Positions 28,469-49,273 of a DNA stretch of 64,000 bases are shown here, in pieces. Within the stretch, counting starts at the first letter, position 1; every line of letters begins with the position of its first letter. Under the pieces are notes generated by a model, which was given only the letters and a program-made list of their open reading frames with translations, searched no databases and had not been told where the DNA came from. Both the position numbers and the translations under genes were made by a program. The stretch comes from Pseudomonadota bacterium (GTDB taxonomy: Bacteria > Pseudomonadota > Alphaproteobacteria > Rhizobiales > Hyphomicrobiaceae), in contig JBCBRH010000009.1 in assembly GCA_039819785.1 (NCBI GenBank), positions 30,885-94,884 of the forward strand. The letters are read 5' to 3'.

Positions 28469-29692
28469 ATGCAGAAAATCAAGGTTGAAGGTACGGTCGT
28501 CGAGCTCGACGGCGATGAGATGACACGGATCATCTGGCAGTTCATCAAAGACAAGCTCATCCATCCCTATCTGGATGTGAACCTTGAATACTATGACCTC
28601 GGTATCGAATATCGCGACAAAACCGATGATCAGGTGACGGTCGATGCAGCCAACGCCATTCGCAAACACGGCGTCGGTGTCAAATGCGCCACCATCACAC
28701 CCGATGAAGCGCGTGTGGAGGAATTCGGCCTCAAGCGGATGTATCGTTCGCCCAACGGCACGATCCGGAACATTCTAGGCGGTGTTATTTTCCGCGAGCC
28801 GATCATCTGTTCCAACGTCCCGCGCCTTGTTCCAGGCTGGACGCAGCCGATTATCGTCGGACGTCATGCCTTCGGCGATCAGTATCGCGCGACCGACTTT
28901 TTGTTCCCCGGCAAAGGCAAGCTGACGATTAAGTTCGTAGGCGAAGACGGCGAAGTGATCGAACGCGAAGTGTTCGACGCCCCAGGCTCCGGTGTCGCCA
29001 TGGCGATGTATAACCTGGACGAATCCATCAAGGACTTTGCCCGCGCCTCCCTGAACTACGGTCTGCAGCGCGGCTACCCTGTCTACCTGTCGACCAAGAA
29101 TACGATCATGAAGGCCTACGACGGGCGCTTCAAGGACATCTTCGAAGAGATCTATCAGGCTGAGTTCAAAGCCCAGTTCGACGGAAAAGGCATCATTTAC
29201 GAGCACCGTTTGATCGACGACATGGTGGCCTCGGCGATGAAGTGGTCGGGCGGCTATGTGTGGGCTTGTAAGAACTACGATGGCGATGTGCAGTCTGACA
29301 CTGTCGCACAAGGATTTGGGTCACTCGGGCTCATGACCTCCGTCCTCATGACCCCAGATGGCAAAACGGTCGAGGCAGAGGCCGCGCACGGTACGGTGAC
29401 GCGCCACTATCGCGAACACCAAAAGGGCAACGCGACATCGACGAACTCGATCGCATCGATTTTTGCATGGACCCGTGGCTTGGCGCATCGGGCGAAGCTG
29501 GACGACAATTTGGCCCTGGCCACATTCACCCAGGCACTCGAGCAGGTGTGTATCCGAACCGTCGAAAGCGGGCACATGACCAAGGACCTCGCCTTGCTGG
29601 TCGGCCCCGATCAACCGTGGCTCACAACCATGGGCTTCCTGGAAAAGGTCGACGAAAACCTGCAAGCAGCACTCGAAGCGAAAGCTGCCTGA
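28469..29692 (+). CDS. icd: NADP-dependent isocitrate dehydrogenase (eukaryote-like homodimeric type)
   Basis: [23 protein letters not shown]..., [35 protein letters not shown] before the ATG at 28469. Confidence 0.95.
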
Positions 29693-29919
29693 CGGCGGCC
29701 CACATCAATCAGGACGAATGCAGGCTAGGAAAAACGCAGGCTGCCAGAACACGACCTTTTGGCGGCCTGCCCCCTCGGCGCGCCCTCACAGCATCGATAC
29801 CGGGGCGTTCGCGAGGCCCGCAGCGAGCAAGACGGCTTTCGCCGGTTTCGGGATCTGACGGAACACGCGAGGCGTTTAGGTCTTTACACTCTGGCTGTGG
29901 TAACCGACTAACGCTAAGC

Positions 29920-30726
29920 CTACGGCACTTCATCAGCCCAGACGCGAAAGCTCTCAAGGGTGTTTGGGCCGAATGTTGTCACCATGGCCACGTCGGCAGC
30001 ATCGCGCCCACGCGCAATGAGAATACGCCCAGCCCGCAGCGTATTGTTACGCGGATCAAACGTGATCCACCGTCCGTCGAGATAGGCTTCGAACCACGCC
30101 GCAAAGTCGCCGGGGGGATAGGGCTTCGGCGTCCCCACATCACTGAGATAGCCCGTGCAATAGCGGGCCGGTATGTTAAGGGCGCGGCAAAAGGCGACCG
30201 CGAGGTGCGCGTAGTCCCGGCAAACACCGACACCTTCTTCATAGGCCTCGGCAGCCGTTCGTGTCGGGCGCGCCTGCAGATAATCGAACGCGATATGCTC
30301 GTGGACAAAGTCGCAGATCGCGCGGACGCGGCCCAGACCCGGCTCAGCCTTGCCAAACAGCTCCCAGCTCATGTCGAGCATCTTGTCGCTCTCGCAAAAA
30401 CGGCTGGCGAGCAGAAAAAGGACAGCATCATTGGGCAGGTCTTCGACAGGAACCTGCCCCGCCTTCTGCGGTACGGGATCAGCAAGCCCGGTATCACGGA
30501 TCGTAGTATCACTGGAAATAACAACACGACCGGCTGGCGCAACCACGCGGCTACACCAGTTACCGAAGTGGTCGCGGTAACCATCGACAAGCGACGTTGG
30601 CTGCATGACAATGTGATCAGCGCCGATAAGATCGCTGACGCGTGAATGATGGACATTCAGCATCAAAAGGCACGGTGTAGGATTGGCAAACTGATAGGTG
30701 AACTCGTAGCCGATCTGAAGATGCAT
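29920..30726 (-). CDS. Transglutaminase-like cysteine peptidase family protein
   Basis: 268 aa. GVCRDYAHLAVAFCRALNIPARYCTGY (catalytic Cys context), then the FAAWFEAYLDGRWITFDP region typical of the family. Confidence 0.8.
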   Translation of the reverse strand: MHLQIGYEFTYQFANPTPCLLMLNVHHSRVSDLIGADHIVMQPTSLVDGYRDHFGNWCSRVVAPAGRVVISSDTTIRDTGLADPVPQKAGQVPVEDLPNDAVLFLLASRFCESDKMLDMSWELFGKAEPGLGRVRAICDFVHEHIAFDYLQARPTRTAAEAYEEGVGVCRDYAHLAVAFCRALNIPARYCTGYLSDVGTPKPYPPGDFAAWFEAYLDGRWITFDPRNNTLRAGRILIARGRDAADVAMVTTFGPNTLESFRVWADEVP

Positions 30727-30942
30727 GGCGTGACCTCGCTTTCAAGCGACGACCAAAATCATCCTCGCGCGCTCAGGCGTAGCACATTGCGCTCATGATC
30801 TGGAGCGGAATAGGCACGGAGTAGGGATCGCACGCCGCCCGTCGATCCACCCACCGATGCAGCGGGCAACCAGACGCCCTGAAAGCGCCAGCAACCGTCG
30901 CACCCTACGAGGACTGGCATCGTCCAGAACGACAATCGCTCT

Positions 30943-31503
30943 TTATTCGCTTTTCGATTTGCTCTTGGCTTGAAAGTCGCGTTGCTGATCAAGAACATAG
31001 AGCGTGAGTGCTGCAAGCTCGGGCGTCTGCCACCCCAGTGGTTCGGAATCCATAGTCACGACGAGACATAGCTGAACCATCTCATCGGCGGTCACCTGAT
31101 CCATCCCCGCACGCTTCGCAGCCATGCCAACCGCATGCGGGTAGGGCTCCAAGAAAGTCTTTTCATACGCCTCGTATTTGAAATGGCAAGACTTGCATGT
31201 CAGGCCATTCTCACTGAGCTTCAGGCTATCAAACAGCTTCTCGCCCTGTTTCAAGGCGGCCGCCTGATCGCTCAGTTCAATCAGGTTTGACCCACTGGGC
31301 CGCGTCACGGTGGCCGGGTCGACCTTCTTGCCTGCAGCCATCAAAGGCGTTGTGACCAGGCCAAACCATAAGCCGCCAATCACTGCCACAAATGCATATA
31401 CGCCCGCACCGAGATACGCAGGCCGTTTACGCTCGGCACTTTTGTTTAAGGCATTTAGCGCTTTAGCACCGTGCCTCGTGGCACGCATTGTCTGAGCACG
31501 CAT
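30943..31503 (-). CDS. Membrane-anchored mono-haem c-type cytochrome
   Basis: One TM helix (GAGVYAFVAVIGGLWFGLVTTPLMAA) and a single CKSCH haem-binding motif. The ATG at 31503 has AGGA 7 nt upstream; the track ORF starts at a GTG at 31554. Confidence 0.55.
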   Translation of the reverse strand: MRAQTMRATRHGAKALNALNKSAERKRPAYLGAGVYAFVAVIGGLWFGLVTTPLMAAGKKVDPATVTRPSGSNLIELSDQAAALKQGEKLFDSLKLSENGLTCKSCHFKYEAYEKTFLEPYPHAVGMAAKRAGMDQVTADEMVQLCLVVTMDSEPLGWQTPELAALTLYVLDQQRDFQAKSKSKSE

Positions 31504-31584
31504 GGTCGGGTCCTGATCACAAAGGTCTGCTGAAGAAAAAGTCCGGGAAGACACGCCAACGACGTTGTCGGAAAAGGGCGCGTC

Positions 31585-32049
31585 TTAACCGAACATGCGC
31601 GCGAAGAACCCTTTCTTCTCAGCAGGCGGTGTTGCAGCGACGACTTCATCGGCAGCCGCCGTCATAACGCCCTGGAGTGTCGTGTAAGTCGTGACCCAGG
31701 CCTCTTTGACATCCGGCGTGAAATCATCGCCGAGACCCTTTTCGAGCGTATAGATCAAGGCTTCACCGACGGGCTTGTACTGCTCGTTTGTGACACCGTA
31801 CCCAACGTGCTTGCGCCCAAGGTCTTGGACAGCGGGAATGATCGTATCGACTTGATGCAGGCTACCAACAGCAGTACCCAGCATTGCCATCAGCTTGCCG
31901 CCTTGCTCACTCATGTCCTCTGGAAACATGGGGCGGACCTCGGGTGCGATTTCGAACAACCGCGTATAGAAAATATCGGCAGCCTGTGGCGCGATTGGAA
32001 CGACCTTTTGAAAGCTGTCCTGCACCAGTTTGACCTGTTCGGGCGTCAT
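31585..32049 (-). CDS. Single-domain globin (sensor/protoglobin-like), cytoplasmic
   Basis: MTPEQVKLVQDSFQKVVPIAPQAADIFYTRLFEIAPEVRPMF... and ...LGRKHVGYGV (proximal His context). No signal peptide. Strong GAGGAGG RBS. Confidence 0.75.
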   Translation of the reverse strand: MTPEQVKLVQDSFQKVVPIAPQAADIFYTRLFEIAPEVRPMFPEDMSEQGGKLMAMLGTAVGSLHQVDTIIPAVQDLGRKHVGYGVTNEQYKPVGEALIYTLEKGLGDDFTPDVKEAWVTTYTTLQGVMTAAADEVVAATPPAEKKGFFARMFG

Positions 32050-32139: not shown

Positions 32140-32721
32140 TCAGTTCACCATTGGAATGCGGATCACAACGCCGCCCATGACATCACCGACTTTGAAGTCT
32201 GTACGTGGTGTGTCTTTGTGGTTGTTGTGGCAGCTGGCGCAGACTTTTGCGACGGCGACATCGGCGTACACGGCTGTGAAGTACTTGGTTCCACCAAGCG
32301 TTTCTTCGCCGTAATAGTTTTCACCTTTGTTGTCGTTGACGAATTTCAGGCCAGCTTTTTCAACATCGGTGCGTGGTGCGTTCTGCTTGTTGATCGGCCA
32401 CAGTGACTGCAGTGAGTAGCTGAACTTGTCCGTCTTGTCGGCCACGTGCTCGGCACCGAAACGGAACATCTGTGCTGGCAGCGGCAGAGCCGAATCATCG
32501 TCGAAGTGCTCGGAAGCCTTGATGACTTTCTCTTTCGCAGCCAGGCGCTGAACCACTTTTTTGGTATAGACCGTCCGGTCTGCAACCATGACCGCAATCA
32601 GCATGTCGGCAACGTCTTTGTACTCGACACCCTTCGCCGTCACGTTCGCAACCGCACCACCAGCCAGCACCGTGCCGGCGGCAAGTGCCGAAACCATAAG
32701 TGTCTTTGTCAGCTTCATCAT
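32140..32721 (-). CDS. Secreted DUF3365 (Tll0287-like) haem c protein
   Basis: Signal peptide, SLWPINKQNAPRTDVEKAGLKF... and a single C-terminal CASCH motif, as in the DUF3365 PAS-like haem family. GGAG RBS. Confidence 0.65.
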   Translation of the reverse strand: MMKLTKTLMVSALAAGTVLAGGAVANVTAKGVEYKDVADMLIAVMVADRTVYTKKVVQRLAAKEKVIKASEHFDDDSALPLPAQMFRFGAEHVADKTDKFSYSLQSLWPINKQNAPRTDVEKAGLKFVNDNKGENYYGEETLGGTKYFTAVYADVAVAKVCASCHNNHKDTPRTDFKVGDVMGGVVIRIPMVN

Positions 32722-32769: not shown

Positions 32770-34191
32770 TTACTTTGCCCCTCGGTCCTTGAGGCGCTTC
32801 ATGACCCAGTCGATGCTTTCGATATGAGCAGAGGGGCGCCCATCGAAATTCTTTTTCACGAGTTCTTTGTCGGCCAACGCATCAATCGCGAAGCCCAACC
32901 CGTGGCAGTCCATGCAGACACTGCGGATCATCTTTTCGTTCGGCCGCAGGTTTGCGTTTTGGTTGTGATTGGTGACGAGGACTTCGTCATATCCCGTCTC
33001 GTCCTCCATCCAGGTGCGCGGCATATGGCAGGTGGCGCAGCTCACTCCGCTGCCCTTCGGCGCCGTGCCGGCCGCTTCGGCCTGGAACAATTTGTGATGC
33101 TTGGAGCCTTCGTAGGCTTTGGTATGATCATCGTCATGACAGGACATGCACGACGTCACCTTTGCCTCTGCGGTGTCGAACGTGTGCGCGCTATGGCAGC
33201 TGTTACATGTCAGCTCGGTATGAGGTTCGATCTTGGATTGCATCGGCAGTCGCGCCAATTCAGTCCGCATTGGTGGAAGCGCTTTTTCACGGAAGATACC
33301 AAACGGACCTGCCGTTTGACTACGCATGCCCTCAGCGAGCCGCATGCCGTGCTTGCCCTTCAGCCATGTCGCCGTCTCTTGCGCATGACAGCTGGCACAC
33401 GATGTATGATCAGGCTTAGTCACCCAGTTGGCCTTGATGTCTTCGGCTGTCTTCTGCTCTGGGGCATGGCATCCCGAACAATTGACGCCTGCTTCTGCAT
33501 GGGAAGTGGCAAGCCATTGCGACATGACCTTTTCATCACCTGAATGAGCTGCTGGTGCATCGGCCTGAGCCGCAGTAGTCAACGGTTCGCCGACAGGTTC
33601 GAATTCGATCTCCTGGCGGGCAACGAGCTTCACAAGCGGCTTTTCTTTCAGCTCCGGTTTGGTCGCATGCTTTTCGAGGAAGTCTTCGTAAAGGGCGGTG
33701 TTGTCATGATAATTGTGACAGCCAGCGGTGGCGCAGGTCGCAAATGAAAGATCCTTGTGGCTGGGCCGGTTCTTCCCGACATCCTCATGGCACAGCGCGC
33801 AGTAGTCCTCGGGAAGCGTCACCCCCATGGCATGCGTCACGTCCGGCTTATGTTCGGTATGACAGGTGATGCACTTCGTGGCCTCCAGCTTTTCGAGCCG
33901 GTCGGCATTGCGCGGGTCACGGAACTTCTTGATGGGATGAGAATCTTTCGAAGCCGCCAAGTCGGCGGCATGACACCCATGGCAGGTTTTCTCGATCACC
34001 TCGGGCCCACCAAACGCTGTTGTGTGGCAGGCGCTGCAGGCCAGCTCAATCTGGTGATGCCCGCTCGTCGTCTCTCCGATCAACAGCATGGCGCGGCTGG
34101 GCCCGCCAAACAGCATACCGGCCATAAGCACACTCCCGCCGCTGACCGTCATAACGATCCAAAGAAGCCAGAGTTTTGTCGTGCGCGTCAT
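32770..34191 (-). CDS. Membrane-anchored multihaem (11 sites) c-type cytochrome
   Basis: N-terminal hydrophobic anchor. Ten CxxCH motifs (CSACH, CHGCH, CITCH, CALCH, CSGCH, CASCH, CNSCH, CMSCH, CATCH, CMDCH) plus one CX4CH (CATAGCH). The GAGG RBS overlaps the upstream stop codon. Confidence 0.85.
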   Translation of the reverse strand: MTRTTKLWLLWIVMTVSGGSVLMAGMLFGGPSRAMLLIGETTSGHHQIELACSACHTTAFGGPEVIEKTCHGCHAADLAASKDSHPIKKFRDPRNADRLEKLEATKCITCHTEHKPDVTHAMGVTLPEDYCALCHEDVGKNRPSHKDLSFATCATAGCHNYHDNTALYEDFLEKHATKPELKEKPLVKLVARQEIEFEPVGEPLTTAAQADAPAAHSGDEKVMSQWLATSHAEAGVNCSGCHAPEQKTAEDIKANWVTKPDHTSCASCHAQETATWLKGKHGMRLAEGMRSQTAGPFGIFREKALPPMRTELARLPMQSKIEPHTELTCNSCHSAHTFDTAEAKVTSCMSCHDDDHTKAYEGSKHHKLFQAEAAGTAPKGSGVSCATCHMPRTWMEDETGYDEVLVTNHNQNANLRPNEKMIRSVCMDCHGLGFAIDALADKELVKKNFDGRPSAHIESIDWVMKRLKDRGAK

Positions 34192-34200
34192 TCACGTGCC

Positions 34201-36282
34201 TCAGTAGAAATAAACGGTCAGGATGTGAACGGCCAGAAGTGGCGGCAGCGGCCAGAACGCGATGAGGTGCATCCAGAAAGATGCTGTCCTCAGTCGCGCG
34301 GCACTCTGCGGGGCATCAAACACACGGTGTTCCAGCGCGGTCGCAGCTCCCGCAACGGCACCGGCCAACGCCAACCCCAGAAACGACAGCATCAGCCACA
34401 TGTTGAGATTTGACCCGAGCCTGAAACCGGTGTGCGCAAACAGGGCAACCAACGCGATAACCCCGATCGCCGTATGTGCCGTGCGCCAGCTTGAGAAACT
34501 CCCAAGCTTTGTGAAAGACAATCGCTTGCGCAATGACAGCACGGCAGCCAGGACCGACAACGCCAAAAGCGTGTAACCGCTCACCTGTTTGGTGTAACTA
34601 TCCAGGAACAACAGATCGGCCCAACTGCGCTCATCGATTGCAACAGCTGTCGGAACAGCTGGAGAAAACAGCGTGATCGCGGCAGCCAGCGCGGTGAGAA
34701 CAGACAGCAACGTGAGTGTCCGCCACCAAGCGACGGGTTCACGCGGCACGGGCGCTTCAAGCAACTCGCCGATGTGGATTTTACAAGTCCCGCAGACGGT
34801 CGATGCGCCTGTATCCCGCTTGACGTCATCCAGGCTGACAGCGCCCACAGCGATACAGTCACCGATCTGCCCTCGCGTCACACCGGTGCAATTGCACACC
34901 GTTGCGGTACGCGGCCAATCCTTGACGCTCTTGGGTTCGGTTTTCGGCCAAACGAGTCCCGTTGTCGCGAACCGCCGCGCCTGCCAGGGATAAATCACAC
35001 CACCGGATTTGACTGTCTCCTGAATGCGCGCAAGTTCGGTCCAGTCCCCCAGTGCGATGGCTCCGACAAGTCGATATCGCTTGAACACGAGACGGCGATA
35101 AATCCCGTTGACCTCATCTTCGAACACAACGCTATTCAGGTCCCGGCGCTGGTCCAGCTGCTCAACATCGCCCGTGCTGAAAACATCGGTCCCGACGATC
35201 TTGAGTTTCGTTGCCAGCACTGACCCGCCGTAGGCCGCTTTGCCTTCAGGCCGCCGGTCCGTGATGTGCTGAACAGCCGCGATGGCCTGCTCAAAGCCAG
35301 GCCCGACCAAACCGTAAATCTGGTCTTCAAATTCGGCGCATTCCCCGACTGCATAGATATTGGGATCGCTGGTCAGAAGAGTGTGATCGACTTTAATGCC
35401 ACGACCAACCGCAAGTCCGATGTCGCGTGCCATCTCCATGTTGGGACGAATCCCAGTGCAGATGATGGCCGTGTCGCAAATAACTGGGTCCCGGCCAGCC
35501 AGCTCGATCGCCTCGAGCCGGGTCTGGCCCGTAAATGCGGTAACCCGCGTCCCCGTCAGAACATGCAGCCCCATCTTTTCGACGGCTGCCTTCAGACCAT
35601 CCCCACCAGCGCGATCAAGCTGACGCGCCATCAGGTGATCTTCATGTTCGATGACGTAGGTCTCAACGCCCCGATCCGCCATTCCGCGGGCAGCTTCCAG
35701 GCCCAGAAGGCCACCACCGACAACAACGCATTGGCGTGAGCGGAATGAGCGTGCGAGTAACTTCTCGACATCATCGAAATTACGGAATGTGAATACGCCG
35801 TCGAGATCTCTGCCCTCAATCGGCGGCACGTGCGCGCGCGATCCCGTCGCGATGATCAGCTTGTCGTAAGTAAACTGACGACCGCGATTTGTGGTGACGG
35901 ATTTTCGCTCGCGATCGATGTCGACGATACTCGTGTTGGAGTAGAGCGATACCTTTCCATCGCCTGGAAATTCCAGCGACTGTTCAACCTGACCGAGTTG
36001 CACATCGCCGCTCAACAGCGGTGTCAGCTTTACGCGGTTATAAGGTTTCCACCGCTCGGCATTGAACAAAACGACATCGCACCCGGCACGGGACAACTCC
36101 TGCGCAGCACGAATACCAACAGGTCCACCACCGATAACGATGACCGGTGCAACAACTTCGACCGTTTCACTCGACGTATCAGCTGAAGCGTCACTGTAAT
36201 CGTCTGCTGGGGCAACAACGTCGCTGCGCTCCGCGACAGGGTCCACGTCGGCGAGCGGTCGCTCCAATAGGTTCACGGTCAT
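34201..36282 (-). CDS. NirB-like FAD/NAD(P)H oxidoreductase fused to a BFD-type [2Fe-2S] module and a C-terminal bis-His membrane domain
   Basis: VIVIGGGPVGIRAA and CVVVGGGLLGLEAA dinucleotide folds, AVGECAEF, C-x-C...C-x2-C (CNCTGV...CGTCK), then about 5 TM helices containing two H-x13-H pairs. Start placed at the ATG at 36282; the track ORF runs to 36408. Confidence 0.8.
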   Translation of the reverse strand: MTVNLLERPLADVDPVAERSDVVAPADDYSDASADTSSETVEVVAPVIVIGGGPVGIRAAQELSRAGCDVVLFNAERWKPYNRVKLTPLLSGDVQLGQVEQSLEFPGDGKVSLYSNTSIVDIDRERKSVTTNRGRQFTYDKLIIATGSRAHVPPIEGRDLDGVFTFRNFDDVEKLLARSFRSRQCVVVGGGLLGLEAARGMADRGVETYVIEHEDHLMARQLDRAGGDGLKAAVEKMGLHVLTGTRVTAFTGQTRLEAIELAGRDPVICDTAIICTGIRPNMEMARDIGLAVGRGIKVDHTLLTSDPNIYAVGECAEFEDQIYGLVGPGFEQAIAAVQHITDRRPEGKAAYGGSVLATKLKIVGTDVFSTGDVEQLDQRRDLNSVVFEDEVNGIYRRLVFKRYRLVGAIALGDWTELARIQETVKSGGVIYPWQARRFATTGLVWPKTEPKSVKDWPRTATVCNCTGVTRGQIGDCIAVGAVSLDDVKRDTGASTVCGTCKIHIGELLEAPVPREPVAWWRTLTLLSVLTALAAAITLFSPAVPTAVAIDERSWADLLFLDSYTKQVSGYTLLALSVLAAVLSLRKRLSFTKLGSFSSWRTAHTAIGVIALVALFAHTGFRLGSNLNMWLMLSFLGLALAGAVAGAATALEHRVFDAPQSAARLRTASFWMHLIAFWPLPPLLAVHILTVYFY

Positions 36283-36547
36283 TGGCCACCGCGCACATCT
36301 AGGAGCGTGCGTCGAGAATAATAACTCTTGGAAAGTGTAAGTGGGACTGCAGTCATTCCGCCTCCAACCATAAAGCCAACGCATCGATGTCAGCGCACGC
36401 ACGGGCATGAGAGCCTGAGTACGCGGGCGCTTTTAATCAGCGTGTTAGGTTTTGGCGGCGTTGCCAGTGTTCAGCCCAACATTGGGCCACACATGAGCGC
36501 AGTAGCGAAGCGCTGCACATTCTCGTATGGCGAAAATCGTGCCAGTT

Positions 36548-36593
36548 TTGATTAACCGATTTTAATCAGTGAAATCATTGGACTAACCAATGG
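36548..36593. promoter_or_regulatory. Two inverted repeats in the AT-rich region upstream of the haem/flavin operon
   Basis: TGATTAA-ccgatt-TTAATCA (36549-36568) and CATTGG-actaa-CCAATG (36576-36592). They lie between the methyltransferase stop (36730) and the flavoprotein start (36282). Confidence 0.35.
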
Positions 36594-36729
36594 TTCGTTG
36601 TGGTTGAAACACATTTGACCGCGCGAGAAATAAGCAGAATCTGGCAGTGAATGATTGGATTTTGTGCGGCTGCATAATAGAGCTTCCCCGTTGGTCGGAG
36701 AAAAGTTCAGAGTCGGTCAACCGCTCAAC

Positions 36730-41856: not shown

Positions 41857-42873
41857 TTAGTCCTCACGAAGCGCGCCTTGAAAATGATCGGTCAGCGGTT
41901 TGAGAAAATAGCTGAGAATAGTCCTGTTGTCGGTCTGGATGAACACGTCCGCAGGCATGCCCGGCAGCAGCGCCTTGCCCCCCAGCCGTGCCGGTTCACC
42001 ATTGTTGAGTGCGATACGTGCCAGGTAGTGGAACGTCTCACCCCGCTCATCACTGACGAGGTCAGGCGAGACGTTGATAACAGTACCGGTCAGTTCAGGG
42101 GTGGTCCGTTGATTGAAGCTTGTCAGTCTCACATTCGCAACCTGGCTCTCTCGAACTTGGTCGATCCGGGTCGGATCAATGCGCGCCTCGAGCACAAGCG
42201 TCGCATCCGTCGGCACAATCTGCAAAATCTCCTGTCCCGGCGCGACGACCCCGCCGATCGTGTGGACCGCCAGCTTGTGGACACGCCCTGAAATAGGTGC
42301 ACGCAGTTCCAGTTGAGACTGATCGGTCGATGCGCGTGACAATTCCGATTGCAGCCGGCCAATCTCGCCTTCAAGCTCCGCACGTTCACGCATCGCCGCA
42401 GCCAACTGCTTTCGCGGCACCAGACGCTTTTCTTCCAACATGCGTAAATCTTCCAGTTCCCGTTGCATAAGCTCCAACTGCTCGGTTTTTGCGCGCAGTT
42501 GTGACTGGAGACCATTCATCCGCTCACCGACACGCCCGCCATCCAGCAGGATCAGCGCATCGCCACGTTTTACGCTTTGGCCATCGCGCACATCGATCCG
42601 ACGCACCACACCGCCGTCCAGATGCTGGATGGCCTTGGAATTGCTTTCAACAACGACGGTGGCTTTGGCAACAACCGCGCCACTGATCTGGGTCACCGCT
42701 GCCCAGCCCCCAAGACCTGGAACAAGCAACACAATCGCCAGACCAGCAAAGCGTAGATAGCTGCCGATGCGCTGATCCTCTTTGGCAATGGCCATGCGTG
42801 GATCACGTTGTGCAGCAGAACCCGGACGGGGTCTTGTTGCATCGCGCTTAAGAGCTTGCGAGGTTTGCGGCAT
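41857..42873 (-). CDS. HlyD-family type I secretion membrane fusion protein (short coiled coil)
   Basis: TM anchor, SNSKAIQHLDGGVVRRIDVRDGQSVKRGDALILLD, a coiled coil of about 80 aa, LRAPISGRV, C-terminal RTILSYFLKPL. Confidence 0.85.
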   Translation of the reverse strand: MPQTSQALKRDATRPRPGSAAQRDPRMAIAKEDQRIGSYLRFAGLAIVLLVPGLGGWAAVTQISGAVVAKATVVVESNSKAIQHLDGGVVRRIDVRDGQSVKRGDALILLDGGRVGERMNGLQSQLRAKTEQLELMQRELEDLRMLEEKRLVPRKQLAAAMRERAELEGEIGRLQSELSRASTDQSQLELRAPISGRVHKLAVHTIGGVVAPGQEILQIVPTDATLVLEARIDPTRIDQVRESQVANVRLTSFNQRTTPELTGTVINVSPDLVSDERGETFHYLARIALNNGEPARLGGKALLPGMPADVFIQTDNRTILSYFLKPLTDHFQGALRED

Positions 42874-45535
42874 GATTGGTGGACCTTAAGGGAGCAACGC
42901 TTGTTTTCGCAGCAGATGACTTCGATGCAGCACGTGAGCGGCCCGCAGGCTTCAAGATGTCGTCCTTCGGGCCAAAAGCGGCCTGCCGGCCATCTTTCAA
43001 AACCAGCAGCAAATTGACGTGCTCAAGTGCTTTGCGCCGATGGGCCAGGACGACCACGGTGCTGCCAGCCTGACGTAACGTATCAATGGACTGACTAAGA
43101 GCAGCCTCCCCGTCCTGATCGAGATTGGAGTTGGGTTCATCCAGCACAACAAAGGCAGGCTGACGGTACAGCGCTCGCGCCAGCGCGACCCGTTGCCTGT
43201 GCCCGCCCGAAAGGACTGTTCCACCATCTCCCACCAACGTGTTGTAACCCTCCGGCAGCGCCTGGATCATATCGTGCACATTTGCCATGCGCGCAGCAGC
43301 GATGATGTCTTGCGGAGAGGCCTCAGGGTCAAAGCGCGAGATGTTATCGGCGACCGTCCCGTCAAACAGTTCAACGGCCTGCGGCAGGTACCCGACATGA
43401 CGGCCAAGCTGCTCCGGTGGCCAATGGTGGAGTGCCGCACCATCCAGCCGGACATGCCCTTTCAGCGTCGGCCAGACACCGACCAGCACACGGGCAAGAG
43501 TCGACTTTCCTGATCCACTTGCCCCCAGCACACCCAGCGCATCACCTGGCTCAAGTTGGAAATCCAGCCCCTTCAAGACGGGATCGCGCAGACCGATCGG
43601 ACTGGCAAACAGACCCTCAACCCGGACCTTGCCTTGGGGCGTGGCGAGTGGCAGCCGCGAAGGGCGCACCGGGGCTTCAGTGAACGCTTCCGCCAAACGG
43701 GCATATCCCTGCCGTGTTGTGATGAAGGAGCGCCAATTGCCAATGGCCGTCTCAATGGGTGACAGCGCGCGCGACATGATGATGGACGATGCGATCATGA
43801 TACCAGGCGAGACAATGTTCTGCAGCACGAGCAGCGCACCAGCAGCCAGAACAGCCGATTGCAACAGCAGCCGGAGCGTCTTGGTCATGACAGTGAGGAC
43901 GCCTGAAACATCGGCACCCTTCGTTTGGCTCAGAACTTCATCGCAGTGCGTCGTAAGCCATGCATTGCGATAAACGCGGGCCATGCCCATCGCTTGCAAC
44001 GTTTCACCGCCGCGACGGCCAGCCTCATACAAGCGCTCCCCGTCGGTCGCGTGATGAGCCGCTTCAAGCACAGGTTTGCGCGACAACAGCTCATTCAGGC
44101 TGGATAAGACAACCAGCACCACAGCACCACCCAGCGCAAGTGCACCAAGTGTCCAGTGGAAGACAAACAGCAGCGCAAAATAGAACGGCGCCCACGGCAT
44201 GTCGAAAAACGCTGTCGCACCTGCTCCCGAAATGAACTGCCGGACATTCCGCAGATCTTTCAGCAGCTGCGCCTGTTCAGTGCGCTTGTTTGGCTCACGA
44301 ATGGCAATGGCTGCGTCAAAAACCTGACTGGATAAAAGCCTGTCAATCCGCAAGCCGATGCGCACCAGCAAACGCGAACGGACGGCTTCCAGCACGCCCA
44401 TGAAAACGAACAGTGCGATCGTCAGGCCGAACAACGCGGTAAGCGTCGGAACGCTTTTCGATGTCAACACGCGGTCATAAACCTGCAGCATGAACAGCGG
44501 CCCCGTCAGCATCAGCAGGTTGATGAACATACTGATGACGCCGACCCCCATGAGGGCGCTGCGGCAGGCCTTGCGCACATCTTTCAAGGCATAGGTTTCA
44601 TCTACTGCCGATGCCACATCAGGATCTGTTACATGGCGCGTTTCCGGCTGGCGAGATGAACGAACCGGCCGGTGCCGTTCATTACTCCGCTGCTGCGCCA
44701 CATGGGCATGTAATTGAACACGCGCTCCGGCAGCCTCACGCGGATTGTCGTTGACGGGTGGCATACCGGCAAGGTTGGTGAAGCGCTCAGAGAGCCGCAT
44801 GTGACTTGGGCTTTGCAGCGCCAAACCCGACAAAGGCGGCACACCGGCAGGGAGCGCTTGCGGAAACCCAAGCGGGCTAACATGCGACGGCTGCGACACA
44901 CGCTTGTCAGGGCGCGGCGGGTTTCTCAGATGCATCGGATAACGCGGAGCAAAGCTGCGATAGATGGTGCCAATCATCAGCGTCACTGTGGCCGTAAGCG
45001 TAAACAATACCAGCCATGCAAAGGCAAAGCCCTGATAGAGCGCCACAGCAGGCAGCGCCTGCAAAGCAGGGACAAACGCAACGGCGGTCATGCCGGTCCA
45101 GCATGTCAACGAAGTCACGCCAATGGCAATCGCCCGGAATGTCTCCAGGATGCTGAGGCTGGCTGCGAGTGGGCGCTGCGCTTGCGTCGTCAGCGGCAAA
45201 AGAAACTGCTGCAGCAAAAGCGCATTTAACGAAAGCAAAACCGCCAACCCGAGCTTGAACACAAGTTTCGGGGGAAGGGTTGCCAAGGTGTGCTTGGTCA
45301 CCAGCAGCGCAGACCCGCTCAACAACAGACCGAACAAACCAATCAGAACCAGAGTGTGCGCGAAACTAACGGCTCGCGCCGAGACGGGTGGACCGCGCAA
45401 AAACAACATGCGGGCGCCCAGACCATCACCGATGACGACGCCTGTCAGCGCCATTGCCAAAGCGGCGTAGTGCATGATGACGACAGCTTCGAGCCAGTCG
45501 ACATCAGCGGTCAGGGTAAGCAGGTCTTCAATCAT
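42848..45535 (-). CDS. PrtD-family type I secretion ABC permease/ATPase with about 310-aa N-terminal polytopic extension
   Basis: Core from about aa 315: MFINLLMLTGPLFMLQVYDRVL, Walker A GASGSGKST, signature LSGGHRQRVALARAL, Walker B FVVLDEPNSNLD. The N-terminal 195 aa are TM-rich, followed by a Pro/Arg/Ser/Gln-rich linker. Confidence 0.9.
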   Translation of the reverse strand: MIEDLLTLTADVDWLEAVVIMHYAALAMALTGVVIGDGLGARMLFLRGPPVSARAVSFAHTLVLIGLFGLLLSGSALLVTKHTLATLPPKLVFKLGLAVLLSLNALLLQQFLLPLTTQAQRPLAASLSILETFRAIAIGVTSLTCWTGMTAVAFVPALQALPAVALYQGFAFAWLVLFTLTATVTLMIGTIYRSFAPRYPMHLRNPPRPDKRVSQPSHVSPLGFPQALPAGVPPLSGLALQSPSHMRLSERFTNLAGMPPVNDNPREAAGARVQLHAHVAQQRSNERHRPVRSSRQPETRHVTDPDVASAVDETYALKDVRKACRSALMGVGVISMFINLLMLTGPLFMLQVYDRVLTSKSVPTLTALFGLTIALFVFMGVLEAVRSRLLVRIGLRIDRLLSSQVFDAAIAIREPNKRTEQAQLLKDLRNVRQFISGAGATAFFDMPWAPFYFALLFVFHWTLGALALGGAVVLVVLSSLNELLSRKPVLEAAHHATDGERLYEAGRRGGETLQAMGMARVYRNAWLTTHCDEVLSQTKGADVSGVLTVMTKTLRLLLQSAVLAAGALLVLQNIVSPGIMIASSIIMSRALSPIETAIGNWRSFITTRQGYARLAEAFTEAPVRPSRLPLATPQGKVRVEGLFASPIGLRDPVLKGLDFQLEPGDALGVLGASGSGKSTLARVLVGVWPTLKGHVRLDGAALHHWPPEQLGRHVGYLPQAVELFDGTVADNISRFDPEASPQDIIAAARMANVHDMIQALPEGYNTLVGDGGTVLSGGHRQRVALARALYRQPAFVVLDEPNSNLDQDGEAALSQSIDTLRQAGSTVVVLAHRRKALEHVNLLLVLKDGRQAAFGPKDDILKPAGRSRAASKSSAAKTSVAPLRSTNHAANLASS

Positions 45536-45634
45536 TCAAGGGGTTCGCAATGTATTGAATAAAAGAAACGAGCCTCGCGCTGCCGCCTGTTTTGTGTGGC
45601 AGCAGCGCAAGACCAAACCGCATCACATGTATCG

Positions 45635-48600
45635 TCAACCGACACGCATGCCGTCATCCATGGCGGCATCGGCGATGGCCACATCAGCGATCATCGGTTC
45701 ATCCATAACGGCCGTGATGTCTGCTGGCGCGTCGTCAGTCGCAGGTGCGTCCACGGTGCCAGCTTCCATTTCGGCCATTTCGGCAAGCGCTTGATCGACA
45801 GTTCCAGCCGGTGTCGCCCCAACCCCGGACGTGCCGAGGATTTCGCCAAGCAGGTCACCCTCAAGCAGGTCCTCGATCTCGTCGCGGTCTTCGGCAACAA
45901 CAAGTGTGCCGTCATCCTGGATCGAATAAACCTCTCCTTGGCCGCTGAAGTAGACATGCTCCACATCGCTGACGAGATCCGTCTCTCCAGCGGCATTGGC
46001 AAAGAACAGCCCGCCATCGGAGACCGTGATCGTGTAGTCATCGATCGAGCCCGCGAGCACCATGACATCCTGGCCACGTCCACCATCGATCATGTCATCG
46101 CCAGCCCCGCCGGACAGAACGTCATCGCCAGCACCGCCGTCGAGAAAATCATCGGCCTCGCCACCAACAAGGACGTCTTCACCCCGGTTGCCATGGATTT
46201 CATCTTGACCGACACCGCCGATGAGAATGTCATCACCGAAGTCGCCAGCGAGCAGGTCGTCACCGTCGCCGCCAGCCAAGAGGTCGTCACCGTGACCGCC
46301 TCGGATATCGTCTTCGCCAGCACCTCCGACGATACGGTCATCCCCCCAACTTCCCGCCAGGTCATCTTCGTCAGCCGTTCCAATGAGCAGATCATCACCA
46401 ACGCTTGAAACGTCACTTGCGGGGTTGTCAGCCGACGGGGTCAGCAGTGTATCCAGCAGCGTGGTGTCGCCTGTTGGGGCGTCGGGCGCATCCGGCACTT
46501 CGGGGGTATCCGGGCTGTCCGGCGTATCGGGGACGTCCGGTGTATCAGGGTTTTCATCCGTCGGTGCATCGGGGGTATCCGGCGTATCAGGCACATCTGG
46601 AACCTCCGGAACATCTGGTGTCTCAGGTGTATCTGGAGCCTCAGCCACAGGCACAACATCGTCTGAGCGCATCAATGGCGTGATGGCCTCATCGATCTCA
46701 TCAATAGTTTCGACGATGCCATAAGCGACAGCCGCGTCGGTCGTGTAGTCGGCATCCGTGATGGTGGCATCCAGAACGTTGATCGTTCCAAGCAGATCGA
46801 GGTTGTGGGCACCACCGCCATTCCCCTGGTTTGACCGCAGGTGCAGGACGCTGTCATCGGCAGCCCCATCTCCATCGGCATCCACACCCGTATCGACCTG
46901 ATAAACCTCCGTGGTGTGACCTTCGATTGTGATCTTGTCGCCTTCGTCACGGTTGAAGTCCGTGATCGTGTCGTTGCCAATCCCATCCACCCAGTGGTCG
47001 TGGACATTGTCGTTTTCACCGGCGACACCCATCCAGTCGATGGTGCGATCGTTGTTGACGTGCTGGTTGATGATCTCCTCTTTCCCATTGATAAGTGTCT
47101 GGAACAAGAATTCATCCGCACCCGTGCCGCCCGTCAAAACATCATCAGCTGGCATGTTCGCCTGGGAGGGGTAGAGCATGTTGGTGACCGGATCGATCTC
47201 GGCGTTCGGGTCATCACTTGCGTCATAGTCCTGTGCGATGACAGGCTCACGTCCGTCGGCGCGGCTGATGATGGTGTCATCGCCTGCGCCGCCTGTAAGG
47301 ACGTCCTCGCCGTGCCCGCCATCGAGCACGTCTGAACCAGCCCCCCCTTCAAGAACGTCATCACCATAGCCGCCCATCAGGTTGTCACTGCCATCGCCAC
47401 CGTCCAGGCTGTCGTTACCAGCGCCGCCATCGAGTGCGTCGTCTCCACCGTTGCCGATCAACTGGTCATCACCGACTGGAACAGGCGGTGCCATTGCCAC
47501 AGCACCATCGAGAGCACCCGGCCCGTCCGCTGCCAGTGTTGCGATCTGCTCCGCCGTCAGGTTGTCGGAAGGGGTGTTGCCGCCCCAAAAGCCGACATCG
47601 GCAATCGCACCCTCAAAGTAGTGTTGCAGATCGTCGTTGAGACCCAGTTCGGCCACCGTTCCAGTGTCTTCGGCAATGCGGGTGTTCGCCCCGATGACGA
47701 AGGGTTTGTCGTTCCCGATGACATACGCGCCGGTATACGCGCTCAAGTTGGGCTCCCCATTGCCTTCAACTTCACGAAACGCGCTGTCAGGCAAAGCTTG
47801 GCCATCCAAATAGACGGTCGCCCCAGCGGCCCCGAACGTGACAGCGACGTGGTGCCATTGGCCTTCCTGGACAACCGACTGGTTGGTCTGCCAGGCATGG
47901 TTGGTCCCTTCGCCCTCACCTTCTGAAAGGCGTACCCGCAGCTGTCCATTACCCGCAACGCTGATATGGAAATGCCCGCCTTCGTCAGAGTTCCGCTCAT
48001 CTTTGGCAAGAATGGTTTGCATGCCACCAAGATCATCGGCACGGAACGACGCGGTCACCGTCCCATTCAAGACCTGATAGGAACTGTCATTCGACGCATA
48101 CGCAAACGTGTTCTCACCATCGAACAAGGCAGCTGAGCCACCGTTCGGACCATCGGTCGTGGGAACGTCAGATTGCAGGACAGCAACATTACTGACGAGG
48201 CTGTAGTAACCCGCATCGGAGATATCTCGAGCATCTTCGAACACACCGTTTTCAGCCGTATCGAAGCGCCAGAACGACAACGGCGAATCAAGCGACGCAT
48301 TGCTGTCCGTAAGGGAATCGCCGACCAGTTGATCAGCACCTTCAGTGCCGGTCAGCACATCATCAGCTGCGTCGATAATTTCGACCGGGCGGGTGTATTC
48401 GGCGAATTGCGGTCCAGGATTGGCGTTCAACGCATCGAAATCTACCTCATCTTGAAACGGGTTTTCAGACACGTTGTCGTTGGGGTTTTCATCACGCACA
48501 CCGGTCGGCGCAATGGCTTCATCGATCTGTGAGATGTTCTCGATAACCCCATAAAACACACCGGCGTCAAGTTCGACATCGGACGCCTCGACGCGGTCAC

Positions 48601-49273
48601 CATGAACGATGACGCGGCCCAGTAGGTCATCGTCGTGGGCACCGCCGTTCGCTTGATTGGAACGCAGCTGGATGATCGATTCTTGGTCGCCGTCGCCGTC
48701 CACATCGTCGTATGTGATATCGACTTCCGTGGTGTGGCCATAAGCGATGATCCGGTCGCCTTCCGCCTTGTCATAGTCAGCGATGATGTCGGTGCCGATA
48801 CTGTCTGGCCAATGGTCATGGACTTCGTCGTTTTCTCCGGCCACACCATTACCGGTCCAGTCGATATTGCCGTCCTGATCGGCGTTGCGACGCAGAATGT
48901 CTTCCTTCGCGTTGAGGAGCGGCGTCATAATGAACGTGTCGGCACCCGCACCCCCGATGAGGATGTCGTCAGCAACGAACGGTTGATCCGGATAGATCGT
49001 GTTGGTTGCCGCGTTCACTTCCCCGTCCGGGTCGTTGCCAGCATTGACCTCCTGCCCGATCTCAGGCTCGCCGGCATCAGACGCCGCAACAAGGGCATCA
49101 TCACCGTCGCCGCCTATCAGAAGGTCAGACCCGCGTCCTCCGTCGAGCTGGTCGTTGCCGGCGCCGCCGATGAGCCGGTCATCGCCGTAACCGCCGTTCA
49201 GCACGTCCGCGCCATCTGCTCCAGTCAGCGTATCGTTTTCGACGGTACCGATTTGTGTTTCACCATTCGCCAT
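45635..49273 (-). CDS. Large RTX (hemolysin-type calcium-binding) protein with LamG/ConA-like domain; probable T1SS substrate
   Basis: Three blocks of GGxGxD nonapeptides (aa 13-60, 603-668, 958-1072), a LamG-like region (aa about 330-565), a PD[TV]PE-rich linker and an acidic C-terminus with no Cys. Confidence 0.9.
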   Translation of the reverse strand: MANGETQIGTVENDTLTGADGADVLNGGYGDDRLIGGAGNDQLDGGRGSDLLIGGDGDDALVAASDAGEPEIGQEVNAGNDPDGEVNAATNTIYPDQPFVADDILIGGAGADTFIMTPLLNAKEDILRRNADQDGNIDWTGNGVAGENDEVHDHWPDSIGTDIIADYDKAEGDRIIAYGHTTEVDITYDDVDGDGDQESIIQLRSNQANGGAHDDDLLGRVIVHGDRVEASDVELDAGVFYGVIENISQIDEAIAPTGVRDENPNDNVSENPFQDEVDFDALNANPGPQFAEYTRPVEIIDAADDVLTGTEGADQLVGDSLTDSNASLDSPLSFWRFDTAENGVFEDARDISDAGYYSLVSNVAVLQSDVPTTDGPNGGSAALFDGENTFAYASNDSSYQVLNGTVTASFRADDLGGMQTILAKDERNSDEGGHFHISVAGNGQLRVRLSEGEGEGTNHAWQTNQSVVQEGQWHHVAVTFGAAGATVYLDGQALPDSAFREVEGNGEPNLSAYTGAYVIGNDKPFVIGANTRIAEDTGTVAELGLNDDLQHYFEGAIADVGFWGGNTPSDNLTAEQIATLAADGPGALDGAVAMAPPVPVGDDQLIGNGGDDALDGGAGNDSLDGGDGSDNLMGGYGDDVLEGGAGSDVLDGGHGEDVLTGGAGDDTIISRADGREPVIAQDYDASDDPNAEIDPVTNMLYPSQANMPADDVLTGGTGADEFLFQTLINGKEEIINQHVNNDRTIDWMGVAGENDNVHDHWVDGIGNDTITDFNRDEGDKITIEGHTTEVYQVDTGVDADGDGAADDSVLHLRSNQGNGGGAHNLDLLGTINVLDATITDADYTTDAAVAYGIVETIDEIDEAITPLMRSDDVVPVAEAPDTPETPDVPEVPDVPDTPDTPDAPTDENPDTPDVPDTPDSPDTPEVPDAPDAPTGDTTLLDTLLTPSADNPASDVSSVGDDLLIGTADEDDLAGSWGDDRIVGGAGEDDIRGGHGDDLLAGGDGDDLLAGDFGDDILIGGVGQDEIHGNRGEDVLVGGEADDFLDGGAGDDVLSGGAGDDMIDGGRGQDVMVLAGSIDDYTITVSDGGLFFANAAGETDLVSDVEHVYFSGQGEVYSIQDDGTLVVAEDRDEIEDLLEGDLLGEILGTSGVGATPAGTVDQALAEMAEMEAGTVDAPATDDAPADITAVMDEPMIADVAIADAAMDDGMRVG
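46475..46642 (-). repeat. Short tandem coding repeats encoding (P-D/E-T/V/A)n linker
   Basis: Encodes APDTPETPDVPEVPDVPDTPDTPDAPTDENPDTPDVPDTPDSPDTPEVPDAPDAP. The plus strand reads as reiterated ggtgtatc/ggcgtatc units. Confidence 0.8.
46676..47467 (-). other. Internal duplication copy 2 of the RTX protein (RTX block plus about 195-aa VHDHW module, aa 603-866)
   Basis: Aligns by eye with aa 13-256: ...YP.Q...DD.L.GG.GAD.F....N.KE.I.......IDW.G.AGEND.VHDHW.D.IG.D.I.D....EGD.I...GHTTEV...DGDG...S...LRSNQ.NGG.AH..DLLG... Confidence 0.75.
48506..49237 (-). other. Internal duplication copy 1 of the RTX protein (aa 13-256)
   Basis: See copy 2. Identity is at the protein level only; the DNA has diverged. 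Confidence 0.75.

Follow-up and report, generated by a model that had tools for sequence, protein, structure and literature searches.

A predicted flavocytochrome gene

The 64,000-nucleotide stretch of DNA analysed here (the window) covers positions 30,885 to 94,884 of contig JBCBRH010000009.1, from the Hyphomicrobiaceae assembly GCA_039819785.1. On its minus strand, at 34201..36282, lies a gene of 693 codons plus stop, whose product combines a NirB-N-type flavoprotein, a BFD [2Fe-2S] domain and a five-transmembrane (five-TM) bis-histidine domain, and which we refer to as a predicted flavocytochrome. This gene is the first of five in an apparent operon on the same strand; unless stated otherwise, all features described below are on the minus strand. 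The longest reading frame, 34201..36408, would encode 735 residues, and the start at 36282 corresponds to Met43 of that frame. The shorter, 693-residue version was adopted because an identical database gene call exists (P0161) and because homologues are about 650-700 residues long. A database search with the protein returned 1253 matches at E<=1e-100. The best 120 of these 1253 are mostly about 650-740 residues in length, and their source names are either 'FAD-dependent oxidoreductase' or 'nitrite reductase (NADH) large subunit' only.

The N-terminal part is occupied by a flavin adenine dinucleotide (FAD)/NAD(P)H module with two dinucleotide-binding folds (Pyr_redox_2, 35269..36144, residues 47-338 of 693, Pfam E 8.3e-60; Pfam Pyr_redox was also matched), followed by a Rubredoxin_C-type interface domain (35002..35214, residues 357-427, Pfam E 1.9e-19) and a BFD-like [2Fe-2S] domain (Fer2_BFD, 34756..34902, residues 461-509, Pfam E 7.5e-12). 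No rubredoxin gene accompanies the Pyr_redox_2 and Rubredoxin_C domains in the window operon, as judged from the list of reading frames and from Pfam. Both Rossmann GxGxxG motifs are located in the Pyr_redox_2 module: in the numbering of the 735-residue frame, VIVIGGGPVGIRAA is found at 89-102 and CVVVGGGLLGLEAA at 227-240, with AVGECAEF at 353-360. An initial annotation of this DNA, made from the letters and reading frames, had listed the same two Rossmann signatures; the second is exactly where it had been placed, while the first occupies 89-102 and not 88-103. The AVGECAEF motif and the cysteine pattern C505-x-C507 ... C539-x2-C542 (Cys 463, 465, 497 and 500 in the 693-residue protein) are as that annotation gave them, and the assignment of the latter to a BFD cluster is confirmed by the Fer2_BFD match. 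In a comparison of 54 full-length homologues, the four BFD cysteines and the Rossmann glycines were invariant. Only about 20 residues separate the last BFD cysteine from TM1. Glu212, the last residue of the NAD fold's second beta-strand, is also invariant, and its presence at this position suggests that the flavoprotein prefers NADH.

The closest characterised relative of the reductase half is NirB. Residues 48-512 align to positions 2-469 of the NCBIfam NirB profile TIGR02374, with a score of 389.7 bits against a cutoff of 578.35. The score is below the cutoff because the sirohaem half is missing, and no Pfam match to the NIR_SIR or NIR_SIR_ferr domains of that sirohaem/[4Fe-4S] half was obtained with the flavocytochrome. 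The next best characterised relative is NorW (161.5 bits versus an NCBIfam cutoff of 392).

The C-terminal membrane domain

The C-terminal domain (34204..34725) belongs to no Pfam family and is predicted to be a di-haem b cytochrome. Where the initial annotation had counted about five hydrophobic helices, AlphaFold2 predicts exactly five long ones for the C-terminal 195 residues. The model has a predicted local distance difference test score (pLDDT) of 90.6 and a predicted template modelling score of 0.84. Two histidine pairs had been proposed to lie 14 residues apart in this region. In the numbering of the longer frame, H645 and H659 are located on TM3 (WRTAHTAIGVIALVALFAHTGF, 34423..34488, residues 641-662), and H714 and H728 on TM5 (FWMHLIAFWPLPPLLAVHILTVYFY, 34204..34278, residues 711-735), with an exact i, i+14 spacing in both cases. 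In the model, TM3 is unbroken over positions 98-120, through both of its histidines. TM5 spans positions 160-193 with a break at 179-180, and a proline kink lies between its histidines.

Conservation was assessed in an alignment of 79 TM domains with 31-72% identity to the query. Both H645 and H659 were invariant, and H714 and H728 were present in each of the 78 sequences covering those positions. Also invariant in this alignment were W641, R642, G649, L656, T660, G661, R663, L664 and G665. In 265 additional proteins, H645 and H659 were each found 264 times and H714 and H728 each 262 times; a fifth histidine, H694, was kept in 163 of the 265 only, while G611 in TM2 and G683 in TM4 were likewise invariant. 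The four histidines singled out at the outset are thus invariant in 78 of 78 relatives and retained in at least 262 of 265 further proteins, a pattern that, judged from the aligned sequences, is far beyond chance. The invariant glycines of TM2 and TM4 face the two histidine-bearing helices. In cytochrome b, helices A-D follow a design in which two histidine-bearing helices alternate with two glycine-bearing ones; by analogy, the layout of the TM domain repeats this design.

The distribution of charges in the loops bears on topology. The TM2-3 and TM4-5 loops have on average 4.4 and 4.0 Lys+Arg residues and are assigned to the cytoplasm; the TM1-2 and TM3-4 loops, assigned to the periplasm, have 1.7 (and are net acidic) and 1.0, respectively. 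Loop charges and the five-helix model therefore place the N terminus in the cytoplasm, with TM3 and TM5 both running from inside to outside. Under the positive-inside rule and in the model, the histidine pairs are predicted to lie within the membrane, and the initial idea of a membrane-embedded bis-histidine domain stands in this respect. The depths of the histidines are matched in pairs, H645 and H714 being close to the cytoplasmic face and H659 and H728 close to the periplasmic face, which is the geometry expected for two stacked bis-histidine haems. From helix periodicity and depth in the predicted structure, we infer that the pairs converge on two pockets.

Distribution and domain fusions

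A scan with the C-terminal domain, limited to one genome per species, yielded 108 loci, 80 of which were fetched and compared. These 80 loci are spread over Alpha- and Gammaproteobacteria, Verrucomicrobiota, Binatia and Myxococcota; 60 are of the FAD type, as in the window, and 20 are of the GPP34 type described below. When a hidden Markov model of the TM domain was used to search 1.84 billion representatives, 422 clusters (50% identity) were obtained at E<1e-30. Host records of the family include the isolates Pseudolabrys sp. FHR47 and Microbulbifer sp. HZ11, as well as Candidatus Filomicrobium marinum. The whole module is present in two copies, on different contigs, in the metagenome-assembled genome MFD03804.bin.1.101 (L003 and L007); L064/L072 and L073/L079 are further pairs of this kind.

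The initial annotation had raised the possibility that the C-terminal region could be encoded on its own in related genomes, as a protein of known but unrelated function. No such stand-alone protein was encountered: the TM domain is always a C-terminal fusion module, and what precedes it is a NirB-type reductase, a BFD+FNR-type NAD(P)H reductase or GPP34. In the protein P0088 (L081:6001-9042, L082 and L083), three cyclic-nucleotide-binding (cNMP-binding) domains are followed by BFD, FAD_binding_6, NAD_binding_1 and the four-histidine TM domain. In P0128 (L084:704-3559), EF-hands precede the same BFD, FAD_binding_6, NAD_binding_1 and four-histidine TM domain series. A gene for a multihaem cytochrome of 460-520 residues comes next in all of these FNR-type loci (L081-L083 and L084), and in L084 it is followed by a gene for a Tll0287-like protein. 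By analogy, the EF-hand and cNMP fusions look like Ca2+- or cyclic-nucleotide-gated versions, convergent with NOX5/DUOX. Since NAD(P)H flavoreductases of two unrelated classes, both of them with a BFD domain, are fused upstream of the TM domain, the fusions provide strong 'Rosetta stone' evidence, at the level of sequence, that the TM domain would accept electrons from cytoplasmic NAD(P)H.

In the remaining variant, a GPP34 (GOLPH3-like) domain replaces the reductase (L056, L057, L059-L061, L063-L066, L068-L074, L076 and L078-L080). The multihaem cytochrome and Tll0287-like genes follow it here too, but the flanks are not conserved. A recent (2025) paper on bacterial GPP34 proteins lists GPP34-P450, GPP34-Rieske and GPP34-PotA fusions but not a fusion with the TM domain, probably because the latter has no Pfam model. 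A P450 as a general partner of the GPP34-type genes was considered and rejected; it is found upstream in two related loci only (L060 and L076).

The apparent operon of the predicted flavocytochrome

The initial annotation had pointed to a neighbouring multihaem protein, and this proved to be the invariant downstream gene. It encodes an undecahaem cytochrome c of 473 residues with an N-terminal TM anchor (32770..34191), and its start codon lies 9 nucleotides past the flavoprotein stop. The protein contains ten CXXCH motifs and one CX4CH motif, all eleven of which are invariant, together with 11 further invariant histidines; no CXXCK catalytic-haem motif was found in it. The gene is directly downstream of the TM-domain gene in 79 of the 80 loci, the exception being a truncated contig, and the order TM-domain gene, undecahaem cytochrome gene, Tll0287-like gene is essentially invariant. 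In databases the partner is named 'cytochrome c3 family protein'. A profile of the undecahaem family produced matches that are local, though significant, to NrfA (2.5e-9), octahaem nitrite reductase (ONR; 7.6e-8) and hydroxylamine oxidoreductase (HAO; 2.9e-7). A Foldseek search with a model of the protein (pLDDT 72) retrieved IhOCC (4qo5, 0.015) and HAO (0.023), with low TM-scores of about 0.23.

The anchor of the undecahaem cytochrome (residues 1-35) is conserved at W8, W11, G29, G30 and R33, which are invariant or nearly so, and the first haem motif starts about 20 residues past it. Because such conservation is unusual for a plain anchor, the sequence suggests that the anchor packs specifically on the five-TM domain, where it may act as a sixth helix.

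The third gene of the operon (32140..32721) encodes a 193-residue Tll0287-like (DUF3365/sCache_heme) periplasmic mono-haem c protein (Pfam E 1.5e-20). Nearly every locus encodes it, and no other protein of the cluster is as well conserved (58-90% identity across phyla). Tll0287 itself reportedly has Cys/His axial ligation of its haem; the window protein has a single CASCH motif and no other cysteine, and therefore is without the cysteine axial ligand of Tll0287. The Tll0287 family has been reclassified as haem-c Cache; signalling-linked members have nitric oxide (NO)-sensor properties, and generic redox roles have been proposed for the stand-alone sCache_heme proteins (bioRxiv 10.64898/2026.02.01.703092).

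The fourth gene (31585..32049) encodes a 154-residue cytoplasmic single-domain globin of the flavohaemoglobin type (Pfam Globin 1.9e-16; NCBIfam Hmp N-terminal domain 6.2e-19). The protein is without a signal peptide and keeps the globin signature FY..Q..H, i.e., Phe-Tyr (B9/B10), Gln (E7) and His (F8). By clustering, the globin family is present in 58 of the 80 loci, all but one (L068) of the FAD type, and a tblastn search with the window globin found no match in the 20 GPP34-type loci. Identity of the undecahaem and globin cluster with the uet cluster of Ca. Tenderia was considered and rejected, as the gene set in the paper that describes the latter differs. In L016:12689-14037, from a gammaproteobacterial metagenome-assembled genome, the place of the globin is held by a 121-residue open reading frame (ORF) without a family and by a 327-residue [2Fe-2S]+FNR 'iron-sulfur-binding ferredoxin reductase', which would thus be a second cytoplasmic reductase in the same operon.

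The last gene of the operon (30943..31554) encodes a 203-residue membrane-anchored mono-haem cytochrome c with CKSCH at residue 120. Its likeness to SoxA/TsdA is weak (Pfam SoxA-TsdA_cyt-c 1.5e-4, under the cutoff), and it is shared with L004 only. In 22 other loci, a mono-haem c protein of the Cytochrome_CBB3/c5 type is encoded between the Tll0287-like gene and the globin gene (e.g., L017:9507-9953). The mono-haem cytochromes of the cluster suggest a link to the soluble cytochrome c pool.

Nitrogen genes and flanking regions

Nitrate-assimilation genes recur in the neighbourhood of the FAD-type loci. NMT1-type NrtA/NasS genes were found within 10 kb of 16 of the 60 loci, NrtB-like permease genes near 14, and genes of ANTAR response regulators (NasT-like) near 8; an ABC ATPase family is found near 19, some of them without nrt genes. 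In L037:46-8076, nrtABC, a true NirB gene (818 residues, with NIR_SIR domains), nirD and nasA are directly upstream of the flavocytochrome gene. In L036:13427-17063, a NirA-type sirohaem reductase gene follows the globin gene, and a gene for a CysJ-like flavoprotein is also located downstream. In L031:1-7829, NasS, NasT and nrt genes and a gene for an Opr-like porin are situated upstream and are divergently transcribed; the porin-like gene recurs in six loci.

In the window, the operon is preceded by an intergenic region of 447 nucleotides (36283..36729), the presumed promoter/operator. Two inverted repeats located in it, AATCATTGGACTAACCAATGGTT at 36573-36595 and TGATTAAAATCGGTTAATCA at about 36549-36568, are possible operator sites. 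The operon is flanked by unrelated housekeeping genes and by RTX and type I secretion genes. The latter form a set further upstream (41857-51208) that encodes an HlyD-family adaptor, an ABC exporter, a 1212-residue RTX/Laminin_G protein and a TolC-like OEP and is unrelated to the flavocytochrome. Long antisense ORFs on the plus strand (29467-30645, 32824-33543 and 33757-34413) have Arg/Pro/Gly-rich translations; they are not genes and are typical of DNA with 57% G+C.

Proposed electron export and alternative readings

We consider it probable that the protein is a membrane-integrated flavo-iron-sulfur-cytochrome that carries NADH electrons from the cytoplasm to the periplasmic face. NADH would reduce FAD in the NirB/NorW-type module, and the BFD [2Fe-2S] cluster near TM1 would take the electrons from FAD one at a time. 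They would then pass to a cytoplasmic-side haem b held by H645 and H714 and on to a periplasmic-side haem b held by H659 and H728, both inside the TM2-TM5 bundle; the membrane domain would accept the electrons that in NirB go to the sirohaem half. From the outer haem b, electrons would be transferred to the co-translated, membrane-anchored undecahaem cytochrome c and, through the Tll0287-like protein or a mono-haem cytochrome c, to a periplasmic acceptor. A further role of the flavoprotein may be to supply electrons to the cytoplasmic globin encoded in the operon, in the manner of the Flp-Bjgb pair described below. Outward flow is favoured by the redox span and by the membrane potential. The domain content, the invariance of the candidate ligands, the signals of topology, the synteny and the other fusions are observed; haem b occupancy, the direction of flow, the formation of a complex and the substrate are what we infer.

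The association with nas genes, the relationship of the undecahaem cytochrome to NrfA, ONR and HAO, and the globin make an N-oxide the likeliest chemistry. We tentatively suggest that the physiological job of the system is the reduction or detoxification of NO, nitrite or hydroxylamine outside the cytoplasm. A broader joint reading, which should be taken as possible and no firmer than that, is that the TM domain founds a new di-haem cytochrome b family and forms a dedicated wire with the anchor of the undecahaem cytochrome. The module would then be an NADH-powered, quinone-bypassing periplasmic multihaem N-oxide reductase that combines features of cytoplasmic NirB and periplasmic Nrf and is coupled to the globin in a two-compartment defence against nitrosative stress during nitrate assimilation, with Ca2+- and cNMP-gated sisters.

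A number of results weigh against electron export through b haems to an N-oxide, and some of them concern the affiliation of the membrane domain. The isolated C-terminal 199 residues match no Pfam family at E<=10, Ferric_reduct included, and a profile of the 79 TM domains matches no PDB sequence at E<=10. When the TM model (pLDDT 90) was compared with PDB folds using Foldseek, only generic helical bundles were retrieved, the best being a talin rod (E 0.12); FdnI, a di-haem cytochrome b, ranked 35th (E 4.7, TMq 0.40), and no NOX, STEAP or MsrQ structure was among the matches. An hhalign comparison of the TM-family profile with E. coli MsrQ and with YodB (cytochrome b561) gave probabilities of 0.1-0.2%. 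Membership of the TM domain in the NOX, MsrQ, STEAP, cytochrome b or FdnI folds was thus not established by Foldseek. To judge by these sequence and fold comparisons, the TM domain has no detectable homologue in NOX or MsrQ, and none in cytochrome b561; the 'inverse NOX' label of the initial annotation survives as an analogy of design and fails as a statement of homology.

Weak signals were obtained when the family was scanned against Pfam member by member. Sub-threshold matches were to DUF4405 (18 of 79 members), Ni_hydr_CYTB (14), DUF4079 (11) and Ferric_reduct (6, best E 0.092); the best E value of any was 0.0019, and the scores were 10-20 bits against cutoffs of about 27. Those matches to DUF4405, DUF4079 and Ferric_reduct that were inspected fall on the TM2-TM3 hairpin, and Ni_hydr_CYTB gave the only near-full-length alignments, themselves weak, over most of the TM domain. 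These four families we take to be di-haem b-type membrane cytochromes. The assignment of the TM domain to a di-haem clan rests on such sub-threshold matches, and on sequence the domain is best described as an unclassified distant member, or an analogue, of the di-haem cytochrome b families. For DUF4405, binding of haem b has been demonstrated experimentally, and a resemblance to MsrQ- and PepSY-like cytochromes has been noted (PMC11334425).

The remaining points of this kind come from the gene cluster. The undecahaem cytochrome, as far as its motifs indicate, looks like an all-bis-histidine wire rather than a catalytic centre, and a five-coordinate haem remains compatible with its sequence. 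No nas genes are located near the operon within the window, and no FNR/Dnr or NnrR box is conserved upstream across 43 loci. No reductase gene was found within 10 kb of the GPP34-type loci (20 of the 80), and the cytochrome of these loci must be able to draw on another donor, such as quinol or a partner encoded elsewhere. The GPP34 variant, with no reductase next to it, therefore keeps a quinol-linked reading alive.

In that reading, the TM domain would act as a subunit that oxidises quinol or reduces quinone, comparable to FdnI, NarI or CbcL, the multihaem cytochrome would receive its electrons mainly from the quinol pool, and the fused flavoprotein would make an NADH:quinone reductase or an auxiliary entry point, not a direct exporter. 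In its favour, genes for the TM domain, a multihaem cytochrome and a Tll0287-like protein are retained at GPP34-type loci although no NAD(P)H reductase is fused or nearby, and Ni_hydr_CYTB, the family of the quinone-reactive FdnI and HyaC, is alone in aligning, weakly, at near full length; FdnI is also a weak Foldseek match (TMq 0.40), and quinol:multihaem modules are a common feed of periplasmic cytochromes. A quinol donor is, however, hard to square with the fusion of two unrelated NAD(P)H flavoreductase classes with a BFD relay to the TM domain. Moreover, the [2Fe-2S] domain directly adjoins TM1, a quinone-site motif was not recognised, and the histidines are distributed two on each of two helices, versus 1+1+2 in FdnI. 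We regard the quinone-coupled explanation as unlikely. The chance that electrons run in the opposite direction is smaller still. In this case, periplasmic oxidation of hydroxylamine, sulfite, thiosulfate or Fe(II) would deliver electrons through the b haems, the [2Fe-2S] cluster and FAD to NAD+ or to the globin. The local relationship of the multihaem cytochrome to HAO, the many sulfur- or iron-oxidising hosts (e.g., Sulfuricaulis, Thiogranum, Acidiferrobacterales and Thiohalocapsa), the SoxA/TsdA-like cytochrome c of the window operon and the need of a cytoplasmic globin for reductant could all be accommodated. Inward transfer, however, opposes the membrane potential and is uphill to NAD+ for most donors; neither a Tyr-crosslink/P460-type feature nor a CXXCK catalytic haem is evident in the undecahaem cytochrome, and the EF-hand and cNMP variants of the FNR type resemble regulated NAD(P)H oxidases. 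We consequently hold such reverse flow to be very improbable.

The five helices could also merely anchor a cytoplasmic reductase that serves the globin or a nas enzyme, in which case no haem would be bound and the histidines would have a structural role or bind another metal. Although the failure of the TM domain to match any haem-protein family significantly agrees with this explanation, a plain anchor would not hold four histidines, two glycines and the HTGxRLG motif invariant down to 31% identity, nor does it account for a multihaem cytochrome gene that is invariably next or for an i, i+14 histidine spacing that occurs twice and at matched depths; we find a haem-free tether scarcely credible. 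A more serious contender retains the export of NADH electrons and alters their destination: a general NADH:periplasmic-cytochrome-c shunt is one option, and roles in defence against peroxide or reactive oxygen species, in metal reduction or in extracellular electron transfer are others. A mono-haem cytochrome c is usual in the cluster (c5/CBB3-type in 22 loci, SoxA-like in the window), the undecahaem protein resembles an all-bis-histidine wire, nas genes adjoin only about one-fourth of the FAD-type loci, and the roles proposed for stand-alone sCache_heme proteins are generic redox ones. Set against this are the co-occurrence of the globin almost only with the FAD-type fusion, the relationship of the multihaem cytochrome to NrfA, ONR and HAO, and the recurrence of nas genes in phylogenetically distant hosts. 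An acceptor other than an N-oxide accordingly seems somewhat doubtful, though worth keeping in mind.

Novelty and significance

In bacteria, periplasmic chemistry is known to be powered by the quinol pool, by thiol relays (DsbD) or, in a few cases, by NOX/MsrQ-type haem proteins. Full-text literature searches yielded no published description of the fusion, of the TM domain or of the gene cluster. New here are the membrane domain, the reductase class with its Fe-S relay, the reversed domain order and the dedicated multihaem partner; what is already known is that flavocytochromes can export electrons from NAD(P)H by way of two b haems. The family, which is widespread and whose genomic loci represent at least five phyla, appears to hard-wire cytoplasmic NADH to a multihaem chain in the periplasm. 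If NADH-driven export through the TM domain is correct, it would add a new transmembrane electron-export route and a new haem-binding membrane fold. Thousands of 'nitrite reductase large subunit' and 'FAD-dependent oxidoreductase' annotations would then be corrected, and the stand-alone form of Tll0287/sCache_heme proteins, which is the most common one, as well as an uncharacterised undecahaem cytochrome, would be given a first functional context. The links to nas genes and to the globin make defence against NO, nitrite or hydroxylamine on both sides of the membrane testable in cultured hosts. The EF-hand and cNMP variants present a bacterial parallel to the regulated eukaryotic NOX enzymes.

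Comparison with known systems

A pair of b haems is known to carry electrons from NAD(P)H across the membrane in NOX2, NOX5 and bacterial SpNOX of the ferric-reductase-domain (FRD) superfamily (PMC5676040, PMC11564096) and in MsrPQ/Fre (PMC12525009). The route that we propose for the flavocytochrome, from NAD(P)H to FAD, to two stacked b haems and to the far side of the membrane, would be that of NOX. The invariant histidine pairs on TM3 and TM5, spaced i, i+14 in a protein with its N terminus inside, are a further likeness (in the FRD superfamily the two pairs are about 13-14 residues apart), and the EF-hand domains of the sister fusion P0128 recall NOX5/DUOX. The differences are nevertheless considerable. 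The domain order is reversed, with the reductase at the N terminus, and even in the rare sisters the FAD_binding_6 and NAD_binding_1 domains come before the TM domain. Instead of a C-terminal FNR-like domain, there is a NirB/NorW-type Pyr_redox_2 flavoprotein with a [2Fe-2S] relay, and the TM helices number five, whereas NOX has six. Ferric_reduct (PF01794) is not matched significantly by sequence or at all by fold, and electrons are likely to be accepted by a multihaem cytochrome instead of O2. In E. coli MsrPQ and Fre, a cytoplasmic NAD(P)H flavin reductase similarly feeds a haem-b membrane protein and, through it, a dedicated periplasmic redox enzyme encoded by the adjoining gene. There, however, each component is a protein of its own; MsrQ, which adopts the FRD fold, additionally draws on quinol, its partner is a molybdoenzyme, and hhalign detected no homology.

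NirB is collinear with the flavocytochrome over the first approximately 470 residues (FAD/NADH, Rubredoxin_C-type and BFD domains), and in several genomes the flavocytochrome gene adjoins true nirBD-nasA genes. The NIR_SIR sirohaem/[4Fe-4S] half of NirB is absent, however, and the TM domain is found in its place; with this half replaced and the NirB profile score under the cutoff, the 'nitrite reductase large subunit' labels are misleading. In Bradyrhizobium japonicum, the FAD/NAD(P)H flavoprotein Flp and the globin Bjgb, encoded in a nas operon, form an NO-detoxification pair (PMC4724949). As in the window, an FAD/NAD(P)H flavoprotein is there co-operonic with a single-domain haemoglobin, and both systems are linked to nitrate-assimilation genes (NasS-NasT control). 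Flp is described as cytoplasmic, without membrane or cytochrome partners, and the two are likened by gene arrangement.

The DUF4405, PepSY-like, MsrQ-like and FezC proteins are small helical membrane domains in which four central histidines are the most conserved residues, and FezC, like DUF4405, binds haem b experimentally (PMC11334425). DUF4405 is the most frequent weak Pfam match of the TM family, with every match under threshold. These families are tied to ApbE flavinylation or to ferrosomes, and not to a fused NADH reductase and a multihaem cytochrome. Finally, the proposed arrangement resembles NrfH, CymA, NapC and the CbcL-type b/c fusions, which sit in the inner membrane and supply electrons to periplasmic multihaem cytochromes c related to the NrfA/ONR/HAO group. 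The donor in those systems is the quinol pool, whereas here its place would be taken by the fused NADH flavoprotein.

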